Part shown: positions 37,106 through 43,882 of the stretch, in pieces
Position numbering within the stretch: position 1 is the first letter of the stretch
Layout: each line of letters opens with the position of its first letter
DNA from: Eubacteriaceae bacterium
GTDB taxonomy: Bacteria > Bacillota > Clostridia > Eubacteriales > Anaerofustaceae
Direction: 5' to 3'
Assembly: GCA_012727485.1 (NCBI GenBank)
Contig: JAAYHF010000169.1
Span: 1 to 58,325, forward strand
DNA length: 58,325 nucleotides
The notes under the pieces: generated by a model
The model's input: the letters and a program-made list of their open reading frames with translations, nothing else
Told to the model about the DNA's origin: nothing
The model's database searches: none
Program-made: the position numbers and the translations under genes

Positions 37106-37189
37106 ATGAATAATACGAAAACGCTCGGGGGGTATCCTTGCGTTTTGCGTTCCATCGGTATTCATTTTGATGTGAGTTTGTGTTTCCGG

Positions 37190-37278
37190 CGGAGAAGGAG
37201 GGATTTGAACCCTCGCACCGGTATTAGCGGTCTACACCCTTAGCAGGGGCGCCTCTTCGGCCACTTGAGTACTTCTCC
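37190..37278 (-). tRNA. tRNA-Ser (anticodon GCU)
   Basis: The reverse complement is GGAGAAGTACTCAAGTGGCCGAAGAGGCGCCCCTGCTAAGGGTGTAGACCGCTAATACCGGTGCGAGGGTTCAAATCCCTCCTTCTCCG. It shows a 7-bp acceptor stem, anticodon stem CGCCC/GGGTG with loop CTGCTAA, a long variable arm and a T-loop TTCAAAT. No CCA is encoded. Confidence 0.9.
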
Positions 37279-37294
37279 GAATTGAAATAAATAG

Positions 37295-37954
<660 letters not shown>

Positions 37955-38069: not shown

Positions 38070-38126
38070 AAAAACAAAAACAGGCGTGAAATCGCAAAGG
38101 AGTTTACCGTTACGATTTCACGCCTG
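38070..38126 (-). terminator. Strong intrinsic terminator closing the vWA-LRR-AAA operon
   Basis: A perfect 14-bp stem CAGGCGTGAAATCG/CGATTTCACGCCTG (38081-38094 / 38113-38126) is followed by TTTTTGTTTTT on the minus strand. Confidence 0.85.
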
Positions 38127-38186
38127 CGGATTTGATGTTTAAAGCCCATGGTCGGCGCTTATCTATTCGCTTTTGTGCGGTATATT

Positions 38187-39704
38187 CTATAATTCCCCCA
38201 ACTGCTCGATCTCGGAATTGAGGGCTATCTGCCTTTCGAAAAAGAGCAGTTCCTTATTATGTTTCGAATAACCCTCACAGCCGTAGGAGGCGATGAAAAC
38301 GGCAGTATGGGGGTTTGCCGTGAGTTCCGCCACCGCCACCAACATTTCCTGCCCGTCCCCGAACACTTCCTCCAAGAATTTGAACATATTATCCATCTTG
38401 CCGCCGATGTTTAAGATAAGCTCGTCCTTTTCGGCGGTCTTTTTCGAGAAGGCTTCTTTTATCATCTCAAAACCTTCCCTGCCCGCGGGATTTCCCGCCA
38501 GTGTGAGATTTTTGCGGCATTCGTCAAGGAAAGCGGCGGCGGTGTTGATTATAAAGCCGTCGTCCTTGGTCAGTATACCCGCCTTGCCGAGGGCGACCGT
38601 CTTTTCCGCAAGGGCTTCCCTCGCCTCCTCCAACAGCGCCGCCCCGTAGGTTTCCTCTGAGGAGATGAGCTTTTCCTTTATTGAGAGCAAAATGGGATAG
38701 ATGCGGGAAAGCACATCTTTTTGAAGGGTGAGGGAACGGCAAAGGGAGGAGACCTCATCTATAAGCAGACCCAAAAGGGAGAGCCTTTCCGTGAATTTCG
38801 CGCGACGCACGGAATTTTTCACCGCAAGGTCTGCCTTGCCGGCGAGTATCTCATCGGTTTTATAGTCCTCGGCGTATTTTTTATACAGGTCGTAATAAAC
38901 CGAGAAATCCTTCGCCACCTTGTTATTTTGAATATATTGGCTGACTAAATCGTAGTTCACGGGAATGTTCAGCTTTTCATAAAGCTTTATCATATCCGAC
39001 AGATCCTCCCAGCCCCTGGCGGTGACAAAGCTCTTGCCCTCGGGGGTGACCTCAAAATAATAGAAATCGGATTTTCTCACGTCCAAATAAGCCATAACAG
39101 AGCCGTGGACCGCCTTTTCATAGGCATACTCCTTCCAAACGGAAAGATCGGCTTCGACCTGCACGACCTTTAACCTATCCAAGGTCACAATGTCGAATTC
39201 CCTCACCGAATCGTTGTATTCCGGGGGATTTCCCGCCGTCACCACCACCCAACCCTCGGGAACGCTGTGCCTGCCGAACACCTTATATTGCAAAAATTGG
39301 AGCATTGCCGGGGCGAGGGTTTCGGAAACGCAGTTTATCTCGTCAAGGAAAAGAATTCCTTCCTTTATCCCCGTTTCCTCCATGGTTTCATAAACCGTCG
39401 AGATAATCTCGCTCATGGTGTATTCGGATACGGCATATTGCCTGCCCGCGAAATTCTTTTGGACGATATAGGGCAGGCCGATGGCGCTTTGGCGGGTATG
39501 GTGGGTCATGGAATAGCTCACCAACCCTATCCCCATTTTATTGGCTATCTGCCTGATTATGGCTGTTTTGCCTATCCCCGAAGGGCCTATTATGAAAAGC
39601 GGCCTTTGCTTTTCCGCAGGTATCACATAGGTGCCGTATTCGTCTTTTTGCAGGTAAGCCCTTATCGCGTTTTCAACCTGCTGTTTCGCTTGTTTTATAT
39701 TCAT
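38187..39704 (-). CDS. AAA_5/MoxR-like ATPase with a roughly 300-aa C-terminal extension
   Basis: It has Walker A GPSGIGKT, Walker B ILFLDEIN and the VVTAGNPPEY segment. Residues from about 210 to 505 are helical-looking without motifs I recognise. Confidence 0.75.
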   Translation of the reverse strand: MNIKQAKQQVENAIRAYLQKDEYGTYVIPAEKQRPLFIIGPSGIGKTAIIRQIANKMGIGLVSYSMTHHTRQSAIGLPYIVQKNFAGRQYAVSEYTMSEIISTVYETMEETGIKEGILFLDEINCVSETLAPAMLQFLQYKVFGRHSVPEGWVVVTAGNPPEYNDSVREFDIVTLDRLKVVQVEADLSVWKEYAYEKAVHGSVMAYLDVRKSDFYYFEVTPEGKSFVTARGWEDLSDMIKLYEKLNIPVNYDLVSQYIQNNKVAKDFSVYYDLYKKYAEDYKTDEILAGKADLAVKNSVRRAKFTERLSLLGLLIDEVSSLCRSLTLQKDVLSRIYPILLSIKEKLISSEETYGAALLEEAREALAEKTVALGKAGILTKDDGFIINTAAAFLDECRKNLTLAGNPAGREGFEMIKEAFSKKTAEKDELILNIGGKMDNMFKFLEEVFGDGQEMLVAVAELTANPHTAVFIASYGCEGYSKHNKELLFFERQIALNSEIEQLGEL

Positions 39705-39784
39705 CTGTTGAGATTTCCTTTCCGCTTATCCTTAAAACCTTTCGGTTCTTATTTAAAACGCCTCATATTAAAAATACTTTTTAT

Positions 39785-41434
39785 TTAAAGTTCCATATTT
39801 CTTATCGTCGATATGCGATAGGCCTTTAACACATCGTTTAGCCTATATCTGGACTTTTGCCTCGGATTTACTATATTGACCACCACTCCCTTAATGCCCG
39901 CCAGCTTCCCGTTTACCTCGACGCACTCCCCCAAATTCAACTTCATGGAGCTGTTGCATTTAACCGTCATAAGGTTATCGAATAAAACCAACACACAGCA
40001 TTTGCCCGGGGTGGTTATCTCGTCCATAGCTTCATATATCTCGCTGTTTTTCTTCACATATTTAAGCAACACAGCCAAGGCCCGGGGGGAAGAATAACCG
40101 GCGCATCTGCCCACATAATCGGCGGGGTCTATCAAAAGGAGCTTATCCGTACAAAGCGAAGATACAATTTGTGCGTTGTCCGAATAAACGGCATACCTCA
40201 TCAGGGCGTCCTCGCAATACTTTGCGGAATTCGCCGTGAGATAACCCCTTCTTTCCAACATATCCGCCAAAATGAGCTTTTTGACCTCGGCCTGCTCGAA
40301 GGTGTAAAGGTTCTCCGTAAGGGCGTTGAAATCATACTTCGCCTGTTTGGTGAAATCGAGAAAGGAGAGCATATTCACATCGTGAATGGCTATCACATCA
40401 CCGTCGGCCATGACGATCTCCTTGGGACAGCATTTATCGAAGGCTGTGGGGGAAAGGCGTTTGAGGTTGGCGGGAATATTCAGGGATTTCAGATTCACAC
40501 ATTCCCTGAAGGCATATTCGCCTATTCGCTTCACGCTTTCCGGGAGAGTAACTTTGTAAAGGCTATCACAGCCCGCAAAGGCCTCCTCCCCTATCTCCGT
40601 AACCCCCTCGGGCAGTTCGTAATAGGCGGCGGCTCCGTAGTAAGAATAGGCTATTCCCTTTACGCAAACTAAGCCCCCCTCGTCCCTCAGACCGATGCAG
40701 TCCTTAAAGGCCATTGTCCCTATCTTACAGCCCTCAGGGGGGAGCAGGGCGTTTTTAAGGGAAATACAACCCGCAAAAGCCTTGGCTCCGATCTCCGTTT
40801 CGCTGTCGGTTATTGCTATCGAACTGAGGCCCACGCAGTCGTAAAAGGCTTCCTGTCCTATAAAAACCATACCCTCCGGGAAATTCATCTCCTCCAATTT
40901 CCTACAGCCGGAAAAACACTCCGCCCCCAATTTGCATATACCCCGGGGCAAAGAGGCGGCAATAAGGGAAGAACAGTTATAAAAGGATCTTTCCGGGAGG
41001 GTGTCGAGCTGATCGCAATTTATCATCGCCACAGTCAGCCCCTTGCAACTTTCAAAGGCGCTTTTTCCCATTTCCTTTAAGCTTTTCGGCAGGGTGATGT
41101 TTCTGATCGCGCGGCAGCCGTAAAAGGCGAAGGCTCCCAAAACCTCCAAATGGCGGGGAATGTTCACTTCCCGCAGGGAGCGGCAACCGTTGAAGGCGTC
41201 CTTTCCTATGGATGTGACATAGCCCCAGCTCGAAACCCTCTCCAAATTCTCGCAACCGGAAAAAGCCCCCTCCCCGATTATCCGCACGCTCTTGCTCATG
41301 CTCACCGAGGTGATGAATTTATTGCGCTTAAAGGCCTCCGTCGCTATCCCCATGACCCCCGGGGGTATTTCCACATTGGGGCTGTTGCCGTTATAGCTTA
41401 ATACCACTGAGTTTTCTATGACAAGCTCGCTCAT
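39785..41434 (-). CDS. Leucine-rich-repeat (BspA-type LRR_5) protein without signal peptide, plus a roughly 215-aa C-terminal domain of unknown function
   Basis: There are 13 tandem repeats of about 23 aa with the core AF-x-x-C-x-x-L (e.g. GEGAFSGCENL, GKDAFNGCRSL, GEEAFAGCDSL). The N-terminus MSELVIENSVV is not hydrophobic. The start overlaps the upstream stop as ATGA. Confidence 0.8.
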   Translation of the reverse strand: MSELVIENSVVLSYNGNSPNVEIPPGVMGIATEAFKRNKFITSVSMSKSVRIIGEGAFSGCENLERVSSWGYVTSIGKDAFNGCRSLREVNIPRHLEVLGAFAFYGCRAIRNITLPKSLKEMGKSAFESCKGLTVAMINCDQLDTLPERSFYNCSSLIAASLPRGICKLGAECFSGCRKLEEMNFPEGMVFIGQEAFYDCVGLSSIAITDSETEIGAKAFAGCISLKNALLPPEGCKIGTMAFKDCIGLRDEGGLVCVKGIAYSYYGAAAYYELPEGVTEIGEEAFAGCDSLYKVTLPESVKRIGEYAFRECVNLKSLNIPANLKRLSPTAFDKCCPKEIVMADGDVIAIHDVNMLSFLDFTKQAKYDFNALTENLYTFEQAEVKKLILADMLERRGYLTANSAKYCEDALMRYAVYSDNAQIVSSLCTDKLLLIDPADYVGRCAGYSSPRALAVLLKYVKKNSEIYEAMDEITTPGKCCVLVLFDNLMTVKCNSSMKLNLGECVEVNGKLAGIKGVVVNIVNPRQKSRYRLNDVLKAYRISTIRNMEL

Positions 41435-42795
41435 TTCAGATTGGCAATATCCTTTTCATTTAATACCATCTTCATCGCCCATATCGGAACATCGGGCTTT
41501 TTTGCCCCTTCCTCCAAGAATATGAAGGCCACAGGGTAATTCGGGCGCCTGCGGGGGAAATGTCCGTAGCCGTCGGTGAAATAGATAAGCCCATTGAGCT
41601 TGCTGAATTCCCTTTTTTCCACCAGTTTGTCCACATATTCGAAAACCGGGCGAAAATCCGTTCCGCCGAAGCCCGAAAGAGTCATGTCCCTGATATAGTC
41701 GTCGAATTCCCTGCGGTTGGTTATCTTGTAGTCGTTTTGCACCGCCGCATCGCATTGAATTATATGTATATTCACCTTTTGGGTAAAGCTCTCGCCCGCC
41801 ATCAGTATGGAATAGGTCTTGTTTAAAAACTGTTGTATGGTTTTTCCATGACAGCTTCCCGAGGTATCCAGCGCGATTACAAACTGTTTTATCTGCTTGA
41901 TTTCCTTGTATTCCAAGGGTTCGATCAGGGGCATATTCTTATAAAGGTTAAGCCCGTAGGTATAAAAGACATAATCGAATTCGTCCTCGTTTATTTTCAG
42001 GCGTTCCTCGCGGAATGCGAATTTCTTCAAAAAAGAGGTGTAATCGTATTTGTCCCGGGTCACTTCCTCGATATTCTGGATAATTCCCCCGGAAATATCC
42101 CCCCAATCCTTGGGGGAGCTTTCCAGATCTATCTTGATTCTTTCGCTTATCTCCTCCCATTCCTCACGGCTCAGGGCGATGTTTCCCTCGGGCATATTCC
42201 CGCTTTCTTTTTCGGGCTCGCTTTCACCGCCCTCGCCGTCCTTTGGCTCTCCTCCGCTTTCCCCTGGATACCACAAAGAGTGGTCGTCCCTGACGAAAAG
42301 CGTTTCCAAAGCGAATATATCCGCCGCCGCAAGGGGGGTGGTGCAAAGATAATCGTAGACCTTTTCCGCGGTTATGATTCCCGTGGTGCGGCTTATCACA
42401 GCACAGGCTTCCCTCTGCTTTTGCGATCTCGGCTCATGGGTCAATTCCGATCCGAGATTGTTCGCCACGCTCTCGCAGGCTATATCGCAGGCGAGATTCC
42501 AAAATCTCCTGTCGATGGTTTGACCCACAAAGGGGTGTTTGAAAACAAAATGCAGAACGCAGTGCAAATAATCGGCGCTGACCTTGTCTTTATCCTCTTT
42601 ATAGGAATTAATAATATAGCGGGGGTTGTAGTTATATACTCTGCCGTCCGAGGATATTGCGGATATATCGGAGGCGGCTTTAAATTCGAAGTTAAAAAGA
42701 GCCACATCAAGATACCTCTGTTTGATGAACAGATTGGCTCTACACATATTCAATATTTCTTCACAGAGAGTTTCTGTTTTTCGCAACACATCCAT
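41431..42795 (-). CDS. vWA-domain protein with an N-terminal putative-metallopeptidase-like domain (DUF2201-type architecture)
   Basis: MIDAS residues are DTSGS (41854-41868), GGTD and FTDG. The N-domain has HCVLH (42550-42564). An acidic Gly/Glu linker is GESGGEPKDGEGGESEPEKESG. Confidence 0.75.
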   Translation of the reverse strand: MDVLRKTETLCEEILNMCRANLFIKQRYLDVALFNFEFKAASDISAISSDGRVYNYNPRYIINSYKEDKDKVSADYLHCVLHFVFKHPFVGQTIDRRFWNLACDIACESVANNLGSELTHEPRSQKQREACAVISRTTGIITAEKVYDYLCTTPLAAADIFALETLFVRDDHSLWYPGESGGEPKDGEGGESEPEKESGNMPEGNIALSREEWEEISERIKIDLESSPKDWGDISGGIIQNIEEVTRDKYDYTSFLKKFAFREERLKINEDEFDYVFYTYGLNLYKNMPLIEPLEYKEIKQIKQFVIALDTSGSCHGKTIQQFLNKTYSILMAGESFTQKVNIHIIQCDAAVQNDYKITNRREFDDYIRDMTLSGFGGTDFRPVFEYVDKLVEKREFSKLNGLIYFTDGYGHFPRRRPNYPVAFIFLEEGAKKPDVPIWAMKMVLNEKDIANLK

Positions 42796-42804
42796 AACTT
42801 ACTT

Positions 42805-42833
42805 ATTATAACTTCAAACTGTGCCTTATTCAA
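42805..42833 (-). promoter_or_regulatory. Near-consensus sigma-A promoter TTGAAT-17-TATAAT with the ATG only 9 nt downstream of the -10 (leaderless or near-leaderless)
   Basis: On the minus strand the sequence reads TTGAATaaggcacagtttgaagtTATAATaagtaagttATG. Confidence 0.55.
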
Positions 42834-43882
42834 GTAAAATCACCTTCCCGGGGTCGAATTAACCAAAAGAACCACCGCTTAATCATTTATGAAAAAGATT
42901 ATCGGGAGATTCTTTTACGGCAACAACAAGGGGAAAGCGCACAAAGATACGGGATAAATGCGGGGATTAAACGGATTACCTACCGCGGGGCTTACCCCGA
43001 TGAACTTTCGCCGGATATGCTTCGGGGGGGGGCGGGGTGGAGTTGAGGGAGTATAAAAAGTGAGTTTTGCCTGTCGGGCGGATATTTCATAAATGCTCAT
43101 GCTGAAAAAAGGGCTAAAGCTTCGGTTTAAACTCTTTTTTCGCCATGGAAACGGAGCTTGCAACGGCTGTTTACCGTTTATAATTGCGCCTTTACGCCGC
43201 CGCTTATCTTATAAATTTATTTTTTCACACCGCCGATTATTCGGTGAGATAAAGTCAAGGGAAATAAGGGTTTAAGGTGGATAACAACCCTCTCCGGGAG
43301 GCGTGAAACGGAAAGAATTTTCTTTTTTATCTTTAGGAGCAAAAGGGCGGTCGCTTTTTCACTGTTGTGCGATATAGCCCTGAAATTCGGCTTTAACATT
43401 TTAAAAAGGACATAAGGAAAATGCCGCAACAACAAAGCTATAATTTTATATAAATACCTTTATTTCACAAGTCGATTGCAAACATAAGAAAGCGGTTTAT
43501 CAAAAGAAAAAAAACCGATAATATCTCCCTACCGACGATAAAGCACAATCGGCTGTCAGGAACGAAGCTTACCATGCGAGTTACCGCCCTTTTACGGCAC
43601 TGTTCGCCTTTTGCGGGGTACACTTCCTCTTGCCCGTAAAAGCAAAAACGCAAGTGCCGAAACGCTTTAGCGTTTTATACTTGCGCTTTTTAATTTATGT
43701 CGATTTCTCGTTTATGGGAATGGTTTATCTCGATTTTTTTGTTCGGGTTAATGTGTTTAAGCCTTAGTTCCCGCTTTTCTCGGTTCGAGTTCGAGGCTGT
43801 CCCAAGCCGAATTAACGGATTGACTTTCCTGGCAGTCTCGAAAGCGCCATAAAACCCCGTCGCCCTGCCCGATGGATTAAAT

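Follow-up and report, generated by a model that had tools for sequence, protein, structure and literature searches.

Three-gene locus

The 58,325-nucleotide contig JAAYHF010000169.1 of assembly GCA_012727485.1 (Eubacteriaceae bacterium, Anaerofustaceae), referred to here in its full length as the window, carries three consecutive genes that encode a protein with a vWA domain (von Willebrand factor type A; gene 1), a BspA-type leucine-rich repeat (LRR) protein (gene 2), and a MoxR-like AAA_5 ATPase (gene 3; Table 1). This trio belongs to a Clostridial module that is widespread and has apparently not been described, in which LRR_5 genes lacking signal peptides are specifically and co-directionally attached to a vWA-ATPase gene pair. 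Our preferred reading, to which we give an even chance, is that the pair forms a cytoplasmic MoxR-vWA remodelling machine with exchangeable cytoplasmic LRR specificity subunits.

A first-pass annotation, made from the sequence letters alone, had proposed a closed transcription unit at this site, and all three minus-strand open reading frames (ORFs) were recovered exactly where it had placed them. The TGA stop codon of gene 1 sits on the ATG start codon of gene 2 in the ATGA junction noted earlier (AAATGAGCG), and an 80-nucleotide spacer lies between genes 2 and 3. Downstream of gene 3, the predicted strong terminator was confirmed: the hairpin (38126-38081) and the adjoining U-run (38080-38070) reach a folding energy of -33.8 kcal/mol (z = -6.7), a stability that was equalled by 0 of 200 shuffles. 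The promoter claim held in part. The site TTGAAT-17-TATAAT is present at 42833-42805, but its description as near-consensus is weak, since a 10/12 match is ordinary in this DNA; 19 promoter-like sites were observed in 9 kb versus 12.2 +/- 3.7 in shuffles, i.e., they are barely enriched. The end of the -10 box is 9 nucleotides away from the ATG of gene 1 (window 42793-42833), and a Shine-Dalgarno sequence was looked for in the start region of this gene and not found. If the promoter is real, this short leader and the lack of a Shine-Dalgarno sequence would indicate a leaderless mRNA. The three genes are presumably read from one transcript, and the ATGA junction might permit the stoichiometric co-translation that had been deduced from it.

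Table 1. Features of the vWA-LRR-ATPase locus, with positions in the window
Feature	Position	Strand	Basis
Gene 1, vWA protein, 454 amino acids	41431-42795	minus	ORF and Pfam
vWA/MIDAS domain of gene 1, amino acids 304-450	41446-41886	minus	Invariant MIDAS residues and Foldseek
Gene 2, cytoplasmic BspA-type LRR_5 protein, 549 amino acids	39785-41434	minus	ORF and Pfam; no signal peptide or transmembrane segment
LRR_5 solenoid of gene 2, amino acids 1-336	40427-41434	minus	LRR_5 match and 13 AFxxC cores
Orphan C-terminal domain of gene 2, amino acids 337-549	39788-40426	minus	Helical with a small beta part, ends NMEL
Gene 3, AAA_5/MoxR-like ATPase, 505 amino acids	38187-39704	minus	ORF and Pfam
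Promoter-like site TTGAAT-17-TATAAT	42805-42833	minus	10/12 consensus match, weak evidence
Intrinsic terminator, 14-bp perfect-stem hairpin (18 pairs in the fold), then UUUUUGUUUUU	38070-38126	minus	Folding

Domain structure of the three proteins

The vWA protein matches two Pfam profiles, DUF2201 (PF09967; amino acids 306-444, 58.2 bits versus a cutoff of 26.4) and DUF2201_N (PF13203; 36.5 bits versus a cutoff of 23.2). The motifs of its metal ion-dependent adhesion site (MIDAS) are complete, as had been read from the sequence (DTSGS at 310, GGTD at 377, FTDG at 406), and residues D310, S312, S314, T379, and D408 are invariant in the alignment of 18 homologues that was used for motif conservation in this protein. 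All Foldseek matches of gene 1 were vWA domains and fell into the vWA half, e.g., VWF A2, ITIH1, integrin I-domains, and the MDN1 MIDAS, with a probability of 1.0 and a template modelling (TM) score, normalised to the target, of about 0.6. Pfam, the invariant MIDAS residues, and the Foldseek matches therefore agree on the vWA assignment.

In the AlphaFold2 model of gene 1 (overall predicted local distance difference test [pLDDT] value of 72), a confidently modelled helical DUF2201_N domain (amino acids 1-177) is followed by an acidic disordered linker (178-207) and a helical region (210-261). The subsequent segment of amino acids 263-301 (window 41893-42009; INEDEFDYVFYTYGLNLYKNMPLIEPLEYKE) is near-invariant in the 18 homologues, yet its pLDDT is below 50; this makes the segment a candidate for a linear element that docks to a partner or to the pore of the ATPase. 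The N-terminal domain had been called peptidase-like. The DUF2201_N profile, which is labelled 'putative metallopeptidase', is matched above its cutoff, but the catalytic Glu of an HExxH motif is absent: all 18 homologues carry H78-x3-H82-x4-H87 (HxxxHxxxxH, 78-87) and no HExxH, with C, M, A, V, or I directly following H78 in every one of the 18 sequences. Searches of Protein Data Bank (PDB) sequences with the complete protein and with a profile of the N-terminal domain gave no significant match.

The ATPase scores above the Pfam cutoffs of both AAA (35.3 bits) and AAA_5 (32.7 bits versus a cutoff of 22). Its Walker A (GPSGIGKT, 40-47), Walker B (LFLDEIN, 118-124), and GNPPEY (158-163) motifs are present as annotated, and GPSGIGKT, LFLDEIN, and AGN159 with the sensor-1 Asn are invariant among the ATPase homologues. 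An AAA core (amino acids ~30-260) is followed by a helical C-terminal extension of 245 amino acids (261-505). In the structural model (pLDDT of 76), a beta-hairpin (80-85/88-93) follows helix 2 and precedes the Walker B strand, i.e., it occupies the position of the helix-2 insert that is a feature of clade 7, in a region of low confidence with a local pLDDT of ~59; a pre-sensor-1 insert is not discernible in this model. The best PDB sequence matches are AAA modules of midasin, and the AAA_5 assignment of the first-pass annotation is corroborated by the agreement of Pfam with the midasin and NorQ matches. The bpMoxR profile (PF20030; 22.4 bits versus a cutoff of 27) and the nSTAND3 profile (18 bits versus a cutoff of 27.2) both remained below their cutoffs, and ATPase homologues carry weak precomputed matches to bpMoxR.

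The LRR_5 match of gene 2 is strong (Pfam, E = 3e-88), and counting of the AFxxC cores reproduced the 13 repeats that had been reported; they form two blocks of 10 and 3. At amino acids ~250-275 (40610-40690), a second cap-like element (GLVCVKGIAYSYYG) interrupts the solenoid and resembles the N-terminal VVLSYNG cap. Judged from its repeat layout, gene 2 looks like a fusion of two LRR_5 modules (10 + 3). No 19-residue window in any of the three proteins exceeded a Kyte-Doolittle mean of 1.5, the threshold that was set for transmembrane segments and signal peptides, and the Pfam scan of gene 2 detected no anchor domain; no signal peptide or transmembrane segment is hence apparent in these proteins, as had been stated for the LRR protein.

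The C-terminal domain of gene 2 is an orphan. It has no Pfam match, and an exhaustive phmmer search with amino acids 337-549 in 1.84 billion representative proteins yielded one true homologue (P0002) plus two marginal matches. A hidden Markov model (HMM) built from three sequences of this domain found no further copy in the surveyed loci. Full-length homologues of gene 2 are limited to one cluster in 5.8 billion proteins (P0002, 55% identity), and the homologue search returned 3635 matches overall. The protein P0241, which shares the small beta part, does not adjoin a vWA-AAA pair.

Attachment of LRR genes to the vWA-ATPase pair

Protein searches indicate at least ~8000 relatives each for the vWA protein and the ATPase. 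Scanning of species-representative genomes with a vWA alignment detected at least 594 vWA relatives, and the 80 best of these loci, all of them from Clostridia (Oscillospiraceae, Lachnospiraceae, Acutalibacteraceae, Anaerovoracaceae, Ruminococcus, Roseburia, and others) and represented by one genome per species, were surveyed for gene linkage. The ATPase gene lies inside the fetched DNA in 62 of the 80 loci, and the linkage fractions refer to these 62.

The pair itself has a nearly fixed layout: in 61/62 loci, both genes share one strand and the ATPase gene is the downstream one. Both genes are directly adjacent in 38 loci, at least one LRR_5 gene is located between them in 20, and 3 contain another insert. 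LRR_5 genes were furthermore found right after the ATPase gene (17 loci) and right before the vWA gene (13 loci), so that in 46/62 loci (74%), one or more co-directional LRR_5 genes are attached. Their number per locus ranges from 0 to at least 4; in six loci without a visible ATPase gene (L009, L020, L023, L057, L058, and L077), 3 to 4 LRR_5 genes after the vWA gene fill the fetched DNA. Overlaps or gaps of no more than 30 nucleotides characterise 73 of the 111 junctions that involve an LRR gene, 15 of which are of the ATGA type. The picture of an LRR subunit wedged between the adaptor and the motor is accordingly true of the window, but elsewhere it is one of three common arrangements (before, between, after). 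The three positions and the variable copy number point to repeated rearrangement with retained linkage. Three metagenome-assembled genomes (L008+L045, L001+L028, L019+L083) each contain two paralogous vWA-AAA systems, which differ in their LRR complements. The cultured Alkalibacter mobilis M17 DMB carries an LRR-vWA-AAA arrangement (L033).

The gene order of the window recurs in two other species (L001, the genome of P0002, and L008) at 55 to 70% identity, with the same 4-nucleotide overlap and the same downstream pyrR gene. Synteny of the LRR gene with the vWA/AAA pair, on which the first-pass annotation had made its proposal depend, is thus retained in both other species that have a full-length orthologue (55% identity).

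An abundant LRR_5 gene might have been inserted by chance into a vWA-AAA operon, with no functional link. LRR_5 genes are indeed numerous in gut and rumen Clostridia, as illustrated by the 3635 matches, and the orphan C-terminal domain of the window protein would fit such an event. We nevertheless reject it as highly improbable: LRR_5 ORFs account for 23 to 31% of the sequence up to 1.5 kb from the pair versus 0 to 7% at a distance of 3 to 7 kb in the same loci, a 4- to 10-fold difference, and gene 2 is the sole LRR_5 gene of the 58-kb window. Chance insertion also accounts poorly for three positions of attachment at 74% of the complete pairs, for co-directional genes with many overlapping junctions, and for the persistence of the trio at 55 to 70% identity. 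In the 80 Clostridial loci, the attachment of LRR_5 genes to the pair is strong and specific, and it very probably reflects a real functional link.

Nature and divergence of the attached LRR proteins

The attached LRR proteins have no signal peptide, with the one exception of a secreted SLH-bearing protein in L071. A typical representative begins directly with an LRR_5 cap (MS..DFVIENGVLKKY.G...VVIPDGVT.IG), and all of the 88 partners that were scanned have an LRR_5 match. Extra domains comprise Ank_2 in 6 proteins, BRCT in 5, DUF4132 in 3, and a Zn-ribbon; Ank, BRCT, and DUF4132 are intracellular domains, in agreement with partners that reside in the cytoplasm. A helical domain of ~105 amino acids without a Pfam match is common to about 70 of the 88; it ends in '...A.LLEYKN' (e.g., L044:11399-11707, L047:6642-6953, L088:9532-11928) and often precedes an extreme C-terminus of acidic/aromatic character (DFSL, EFVLD, FDEL); the window protein ends in NMEL. 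The ~105-amino-acid domain and its acidic/aromatic tail could serve as a docking module or as a MIDAS ligand.

With respect to the C-terminus of its LRR protein, the window trio forms, together with the two orthologous trios, an atypical sub-variant of the module, as judged by sequence comparison. An hhalign comparison of the C-terminal domain of gene 2 with the common helical domain of the other LRR partners resulted in a probability of 4.5%.

The components of the module evolve at clearly different rates in the order AAA > vWA >> LRR of sequence identity. The ATPases are 55 to 57% identical across families, with a nearly invariant length and a mean column identity of 76%, and the vWA proteins are 45 to 50% identical. 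At an ATPase identity of 80 to 90%, the vWA proteins share ~67% and the best LRR match ~40%. A strongly conserved core and LRR partners with a variable number, position, sequence, and set of extra domains suggest a machine that is re-targeted by exchange or diversification of its LRR proteins.

The same linkage could arise if the LRR_5 proteins were clients and the MoxR-vWA pair a dedicated chaperone that folds, matures, or metal-loads the solenoids. MoxR-vWA pairs are usually encoded beside their client, as exemplified by NorQD beside cNOR and CbbQO beside rubisco (PMC9976466), the linkage and translational coupling fit this explanation equally well, and the acidic/aromatic tail on many LRR partners could be the MIDAS ligand. 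However, the same genomes encode many LRR_5 proteins at other sites that lack a chaperone of this kind, one in four pairs has no LRR gene in its vicinity, and a nearly invariant chaperone would have to serve clients that are extremely diverse in sequence and architecture. We consider a client relationship improbable, and an adaptor role of the LRR proteins in a remodelling machine remains our preferred reading.

Genomic context and the question of a defence function

The flanks of the surveyed loci are heterogeneous and consist of housekeeping genes: the 139 genes examined there represent 129 Pfam families, none of which recurs in more than 4 loci. The lack of a recurrent flanking family indicates that the module is self-contained. 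In the window, the pyrR gene (Pribosyltran, 37325-37954) is convergent to the operon and followed by tRNA-Ser(gct) at 37188-37278, which is located 0.9 kb from gene 3, as had been reported, with pyrR intervening. The conserved position of pyrR in the two related species with the trio argues for vertical inheritance of the locus. From the neighbouring tRNA gene and the noncoding flanks, an accessory status had been suspected; this was not borne out, and an island was rejected as well, since the GC content resembles that of the flanks, no integrase is located nearby, and the synteny with pyrR is kept in the relatives. An Rfam scan of 36-45 kb revealed the tRNA as the sole match. Upstream of the operon, a stretch of ~1 kb (window 42834-43882) with a GC content of 0.43 and a C-run contains no convincing ORF and has no Rfam match; this spacer is unusually long for a compact genome, and its equivalent in the relative L001 comprises 88 nucleotides. 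The window locus shows no defence-island or mobile-element signature.

In PADLOC-DB 2.0, genes 1 and 2 had no match, and gene 3 had a match at the P-loop level only (IetA, E = 1.8e-4, 57 amino acids). The NCBIfam scan of the three proteins gave nothing specific, with weak matches of gene 2 to HupY and Gli349, and Pfam scans detected no effector domain or effector-associated domain (EAD) on the vWA protein or the LRR partners. Public entries for the proteins bear generic names ('metallopeptidase', 'VWA-like domain-containing protein', 'AAA family ATPase'). No description of an LRR_5 partner of a DUF2201/AAA_5 pair was found in PADLOC, NCBIfam, and the literature searched, which is in line with the earlier statement that the architecture is not known to be characterised.

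No close homologues were found on plasmids or verified phages; the plasmid matches are distant MoxR proteins. Phage carriage was rejected because the close 'Bacteriophage sp.' matches are unverified virome contigs, the longest of which is a fragment of a bacterial chromosome. The unverified virome contig L092 (GenBank MT835935.1), mislabelled as phage, is such a chromosome fragment; on it, genes for ABC exporter, radical SAM, M18 peptidase, DegV, and Mur ligase proteins are followed by an LRR-vWA-AAA cluster.

Two further contexts were recorded. In an abundant gut species (L088:3489-11931), the gene order is WYL regulator, small ORF, vWA, LRR_5 (604 amino acids), AAA, and an LRR_5+DUF4132 fusion, with a BRCT gene upstream and an integrated mobile element downstream (M78/HTH, MobC, VapE, ParB, resolvase). 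Cytoplasmic LRR_5-TIR_2 fusions without an adjoining vWA-AAA pair are present at L095:7001-9670 and L096:7001-9616 in contexts that resemble defence islands, next to TIR-NB-ARC-TPR, Cas3/Cse1, and NPHP3_N-TPR genes.

A conflict or defence system would be a third way to explain the attachment, with diversifying cytoplasmic LRR sensors that recognise invader molecules and license a MoxR-vWA output, e.g., through the zincin-like domain. Such a system is expected to combine a conserved engine with fast-evolving, multi-copy, shuffled LRR partners, as observed here, and the genomes with two paralogous systems, the locus with upstream WYL and BRCT genes and an adjoining mobile element, the occurrence of related LRR_5-TIR_2 fusions in defence islands, and the weak matches of the ATPase homologues to bpMoxR, the MoxR profile of a ternary conflict system, all speak in its favour, as does the precedent of such systems (PMC7159879, PMC8195603). 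The lack of a significant PADLOC match, flanks made of ordinary housekeeping genes instead of defence islands, and the absence of close homologues from phages and plasmids argue in the opposite direction. In addition, the core is unusually conserved for a conflict system (an ATPase of invariant length that is 55 to 57% identical across families), no effector is recognisable, as the peptidase-like domain has no catalytic Glu, and EAD/Death-like adaptor domains are missing. On balance, a defence function seems unlikely, and a re-targetable remodelling machine is the reading that we pursue below.

Working model of the module

In the proposed mechanism, gene 3 would provide the ATP-driven motor, an ATPase of the AAA_5 class (as NorQ, RavA, and midasin) that presumably assembles into a hexameric ring. 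The protein of gene 1 would act as the adaptor of this motor, with the MIDAS metal site of its vWA domain gripping an acidic residue of the target, and its linker and the invariant segment of amino acids 263-301 may couple the adaptor to the motor. The DUF2201_N domain might be a metal-binding relic of a zincin without the catalytic Glu that offers a second contact. The LRR_5 solenoid of gene 2 would represent the exchangeable specificity subunit, which captures a ligand or target and delivers it to the vWA-AAA core, and this core could then spend ATP hydrolysis on remodelling or disassembling the target. That the three proteins form a complex, that the LRR protein is an adaptor and not a client, and that remodelling is the output, we infer from domain content, gene linkage, and the precedents of other MoxR-vWA pairs.

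Several observations weigh against this model. No LRR gene is attached at 16 of the 62 complete pairs, which means that a nearby LRR gene is not required for the core to work (or to be encoded). The LRR protein of the window and its two orthologues have no detectable copy of the ~105-amino-acid helical domain, so that their docking mode may differ. The fold matches of gene 3 (NorQ, dynein, FtsH; NorQ-NorD as PDB 9qh6) are weak, with TM scores below 0.3, and parts of the core of the gene 3 model are of low confidence. Finally, the 80 loci are the nearest relatives of the window vWA protein and share a phylogeny; the counts are hence dependent events.

MoxR-vWA machines are common, and a target or specificity principle is known for few of them. 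In the module described here, a family of cytoplasmic LRR proteins, encoded in cis, appears to supply the specificity element. BspA-type LRR_5 repeats, which have so far been seen as surface adhesins, would gain an intracellular role, and a large uncharacterised pair of gene families would be defined. The molecules bound by the LRR proteins would be a tractable route to the targets. A more far-reaching version, which we judge to be doubtful, envisages a widespread intracellular surveillance machine of gut and rumen Clostridia, an 'NLR in trans' whose recognition and NTPase functions reside on separate polypeptides, with a near-invariant MoxR-AAA+/MIDAS-vWA engine and interchangeable BspA-type LRR receptors of the cytoplasm that diversify rapidly; such a machine detects foreign or aberrant proteins and responds by ATP-driven remodelling or activation of the zincin-like domain. 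If the conflict reading were true, the module would represent an LRR-based immune architecture in bacteria that dominate the gut and rumen microbiomes.

Comparison with known systems

The closest relatives in terms of organisation are the MoxR/vWA pairs NorQ-NorD, RavA-ViaA, CbbQ-CbbO, and CobS-CobT. In these systems, too, the gene of an AAA_5-type ATPase adjoins that of a protein with a C-terminal MIDAS-vWA domain, the vWA protein further comprises a disordered linker and, at its N-terminus, a domain for target binding, and the expected mechanism is ATP-driven remodelling through the vWA domain (PMC9976466, PMC13036017). For NorQD, it has been reported that a 'finger' of the vWA domain plugs the NorQ pore, that the MIDAS and the N-terminal domain bind the target, and that the linker is remodelled (PMC9976466, PMC13036017). 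Gene 1 has the same layout as NorD (N-terminal domain, disordered linker, vWA domain), and NorQ is among the best, though weak, structural matches of gene 3. The 505-amino-acid ATPase of the window differs from NorQ and CbbQ by its 245-amino-acid helical extension, which is not seen in those proteins, and the module differs from the known pairs by the DUF2201_N domain on the vWA protein, the variable set of cytoplasmic LRR_5 proteins, and the lack of a client enzyme gene near the Clostridial pair.

MoxR-vWA ternary conflict systems, which were proposed by Kaur et al. in 2020 and 2021 (PMC7159879, PMC8195603), likewise consist of a conserved MoxR and vWA core plus a variable repeat-containing third component, and the ATPase homologues have weak PF20030 (bpMoxR) matches. 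In those systems, the third component is VMAP, iSTAND, FtsH, a beta-propeller, or TERNS3, instead of the LRR_5 protein found here, and term searches of the papers did not retrieve LRR_5 in this role. Further differences are the absence of EAD/effector domains, a bpMoxR score below the cutoff, and the presence of DUF2201_N in our module, as well as the hosts, which are multicellular actinobacteria and cyanobacteria in the conflict systems and unicellular anaerobic Clostridia in the present case.

Midasin/Rea1, a eukaryotic AAA+ protein of ribosome assembly that has a MIDAS domain, provides the best PDB sequence matches of gene 3, and the MDN1 MIDAS is among the fold matches of the vWA domain. 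The principle may also be shared, i.e., that the MIDAS grips an acidic residue of the partner while the AAA ring pulls. Unlike midasin, which is a single chain of 5000 amino acids that comprises six AAA modules and has assembly factors with a Ubl domain as its substrates, the ATPase and vWA proteins of the module are separate and small, and a Ubl partner is missing. Escherichia coli also has an uncharacterised cluster in which MoxR and vWA genes are linked to DUF4132, namely, yehI(DUF4132)-yehK-yehL(MoxR)-yehM-yehP(vWA)-yehQ(SWIM), and several Clostridial loci encode DUF4132 next to the pair or as a fusion with LRR_5. The yeh cluster has neither an LRR nor DUF2201_N, and the Clostridial loci are without a SWIM or YehM counterpart; YehL and YehP were rejected as orthologues, as profile comparison revealed generic P-loop and vWA similarity only.

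The LRR_5 repeats belong to the same family as those of BspA, HupY/LrrG, and Gli349. These proteins are secreted or wall-anchored adhesins, whereas the LRR proteins attached to the pair have no signal peptide, transmembrane segment, or anchor and carry intracellular domains. The comparison with STAND/NLR immune sensors that had been drawn in the first-pass annotation is apt insofar as an LRR recognition module operates with an NTPase, but it is an analogy only, because the ATPase is not a STAND NTPase. STAND/NLR receptors differ from the module described here, in which the LRR and the NTPase are located on separate polypeptides and the NTPase belongs to the AAA_5 class.

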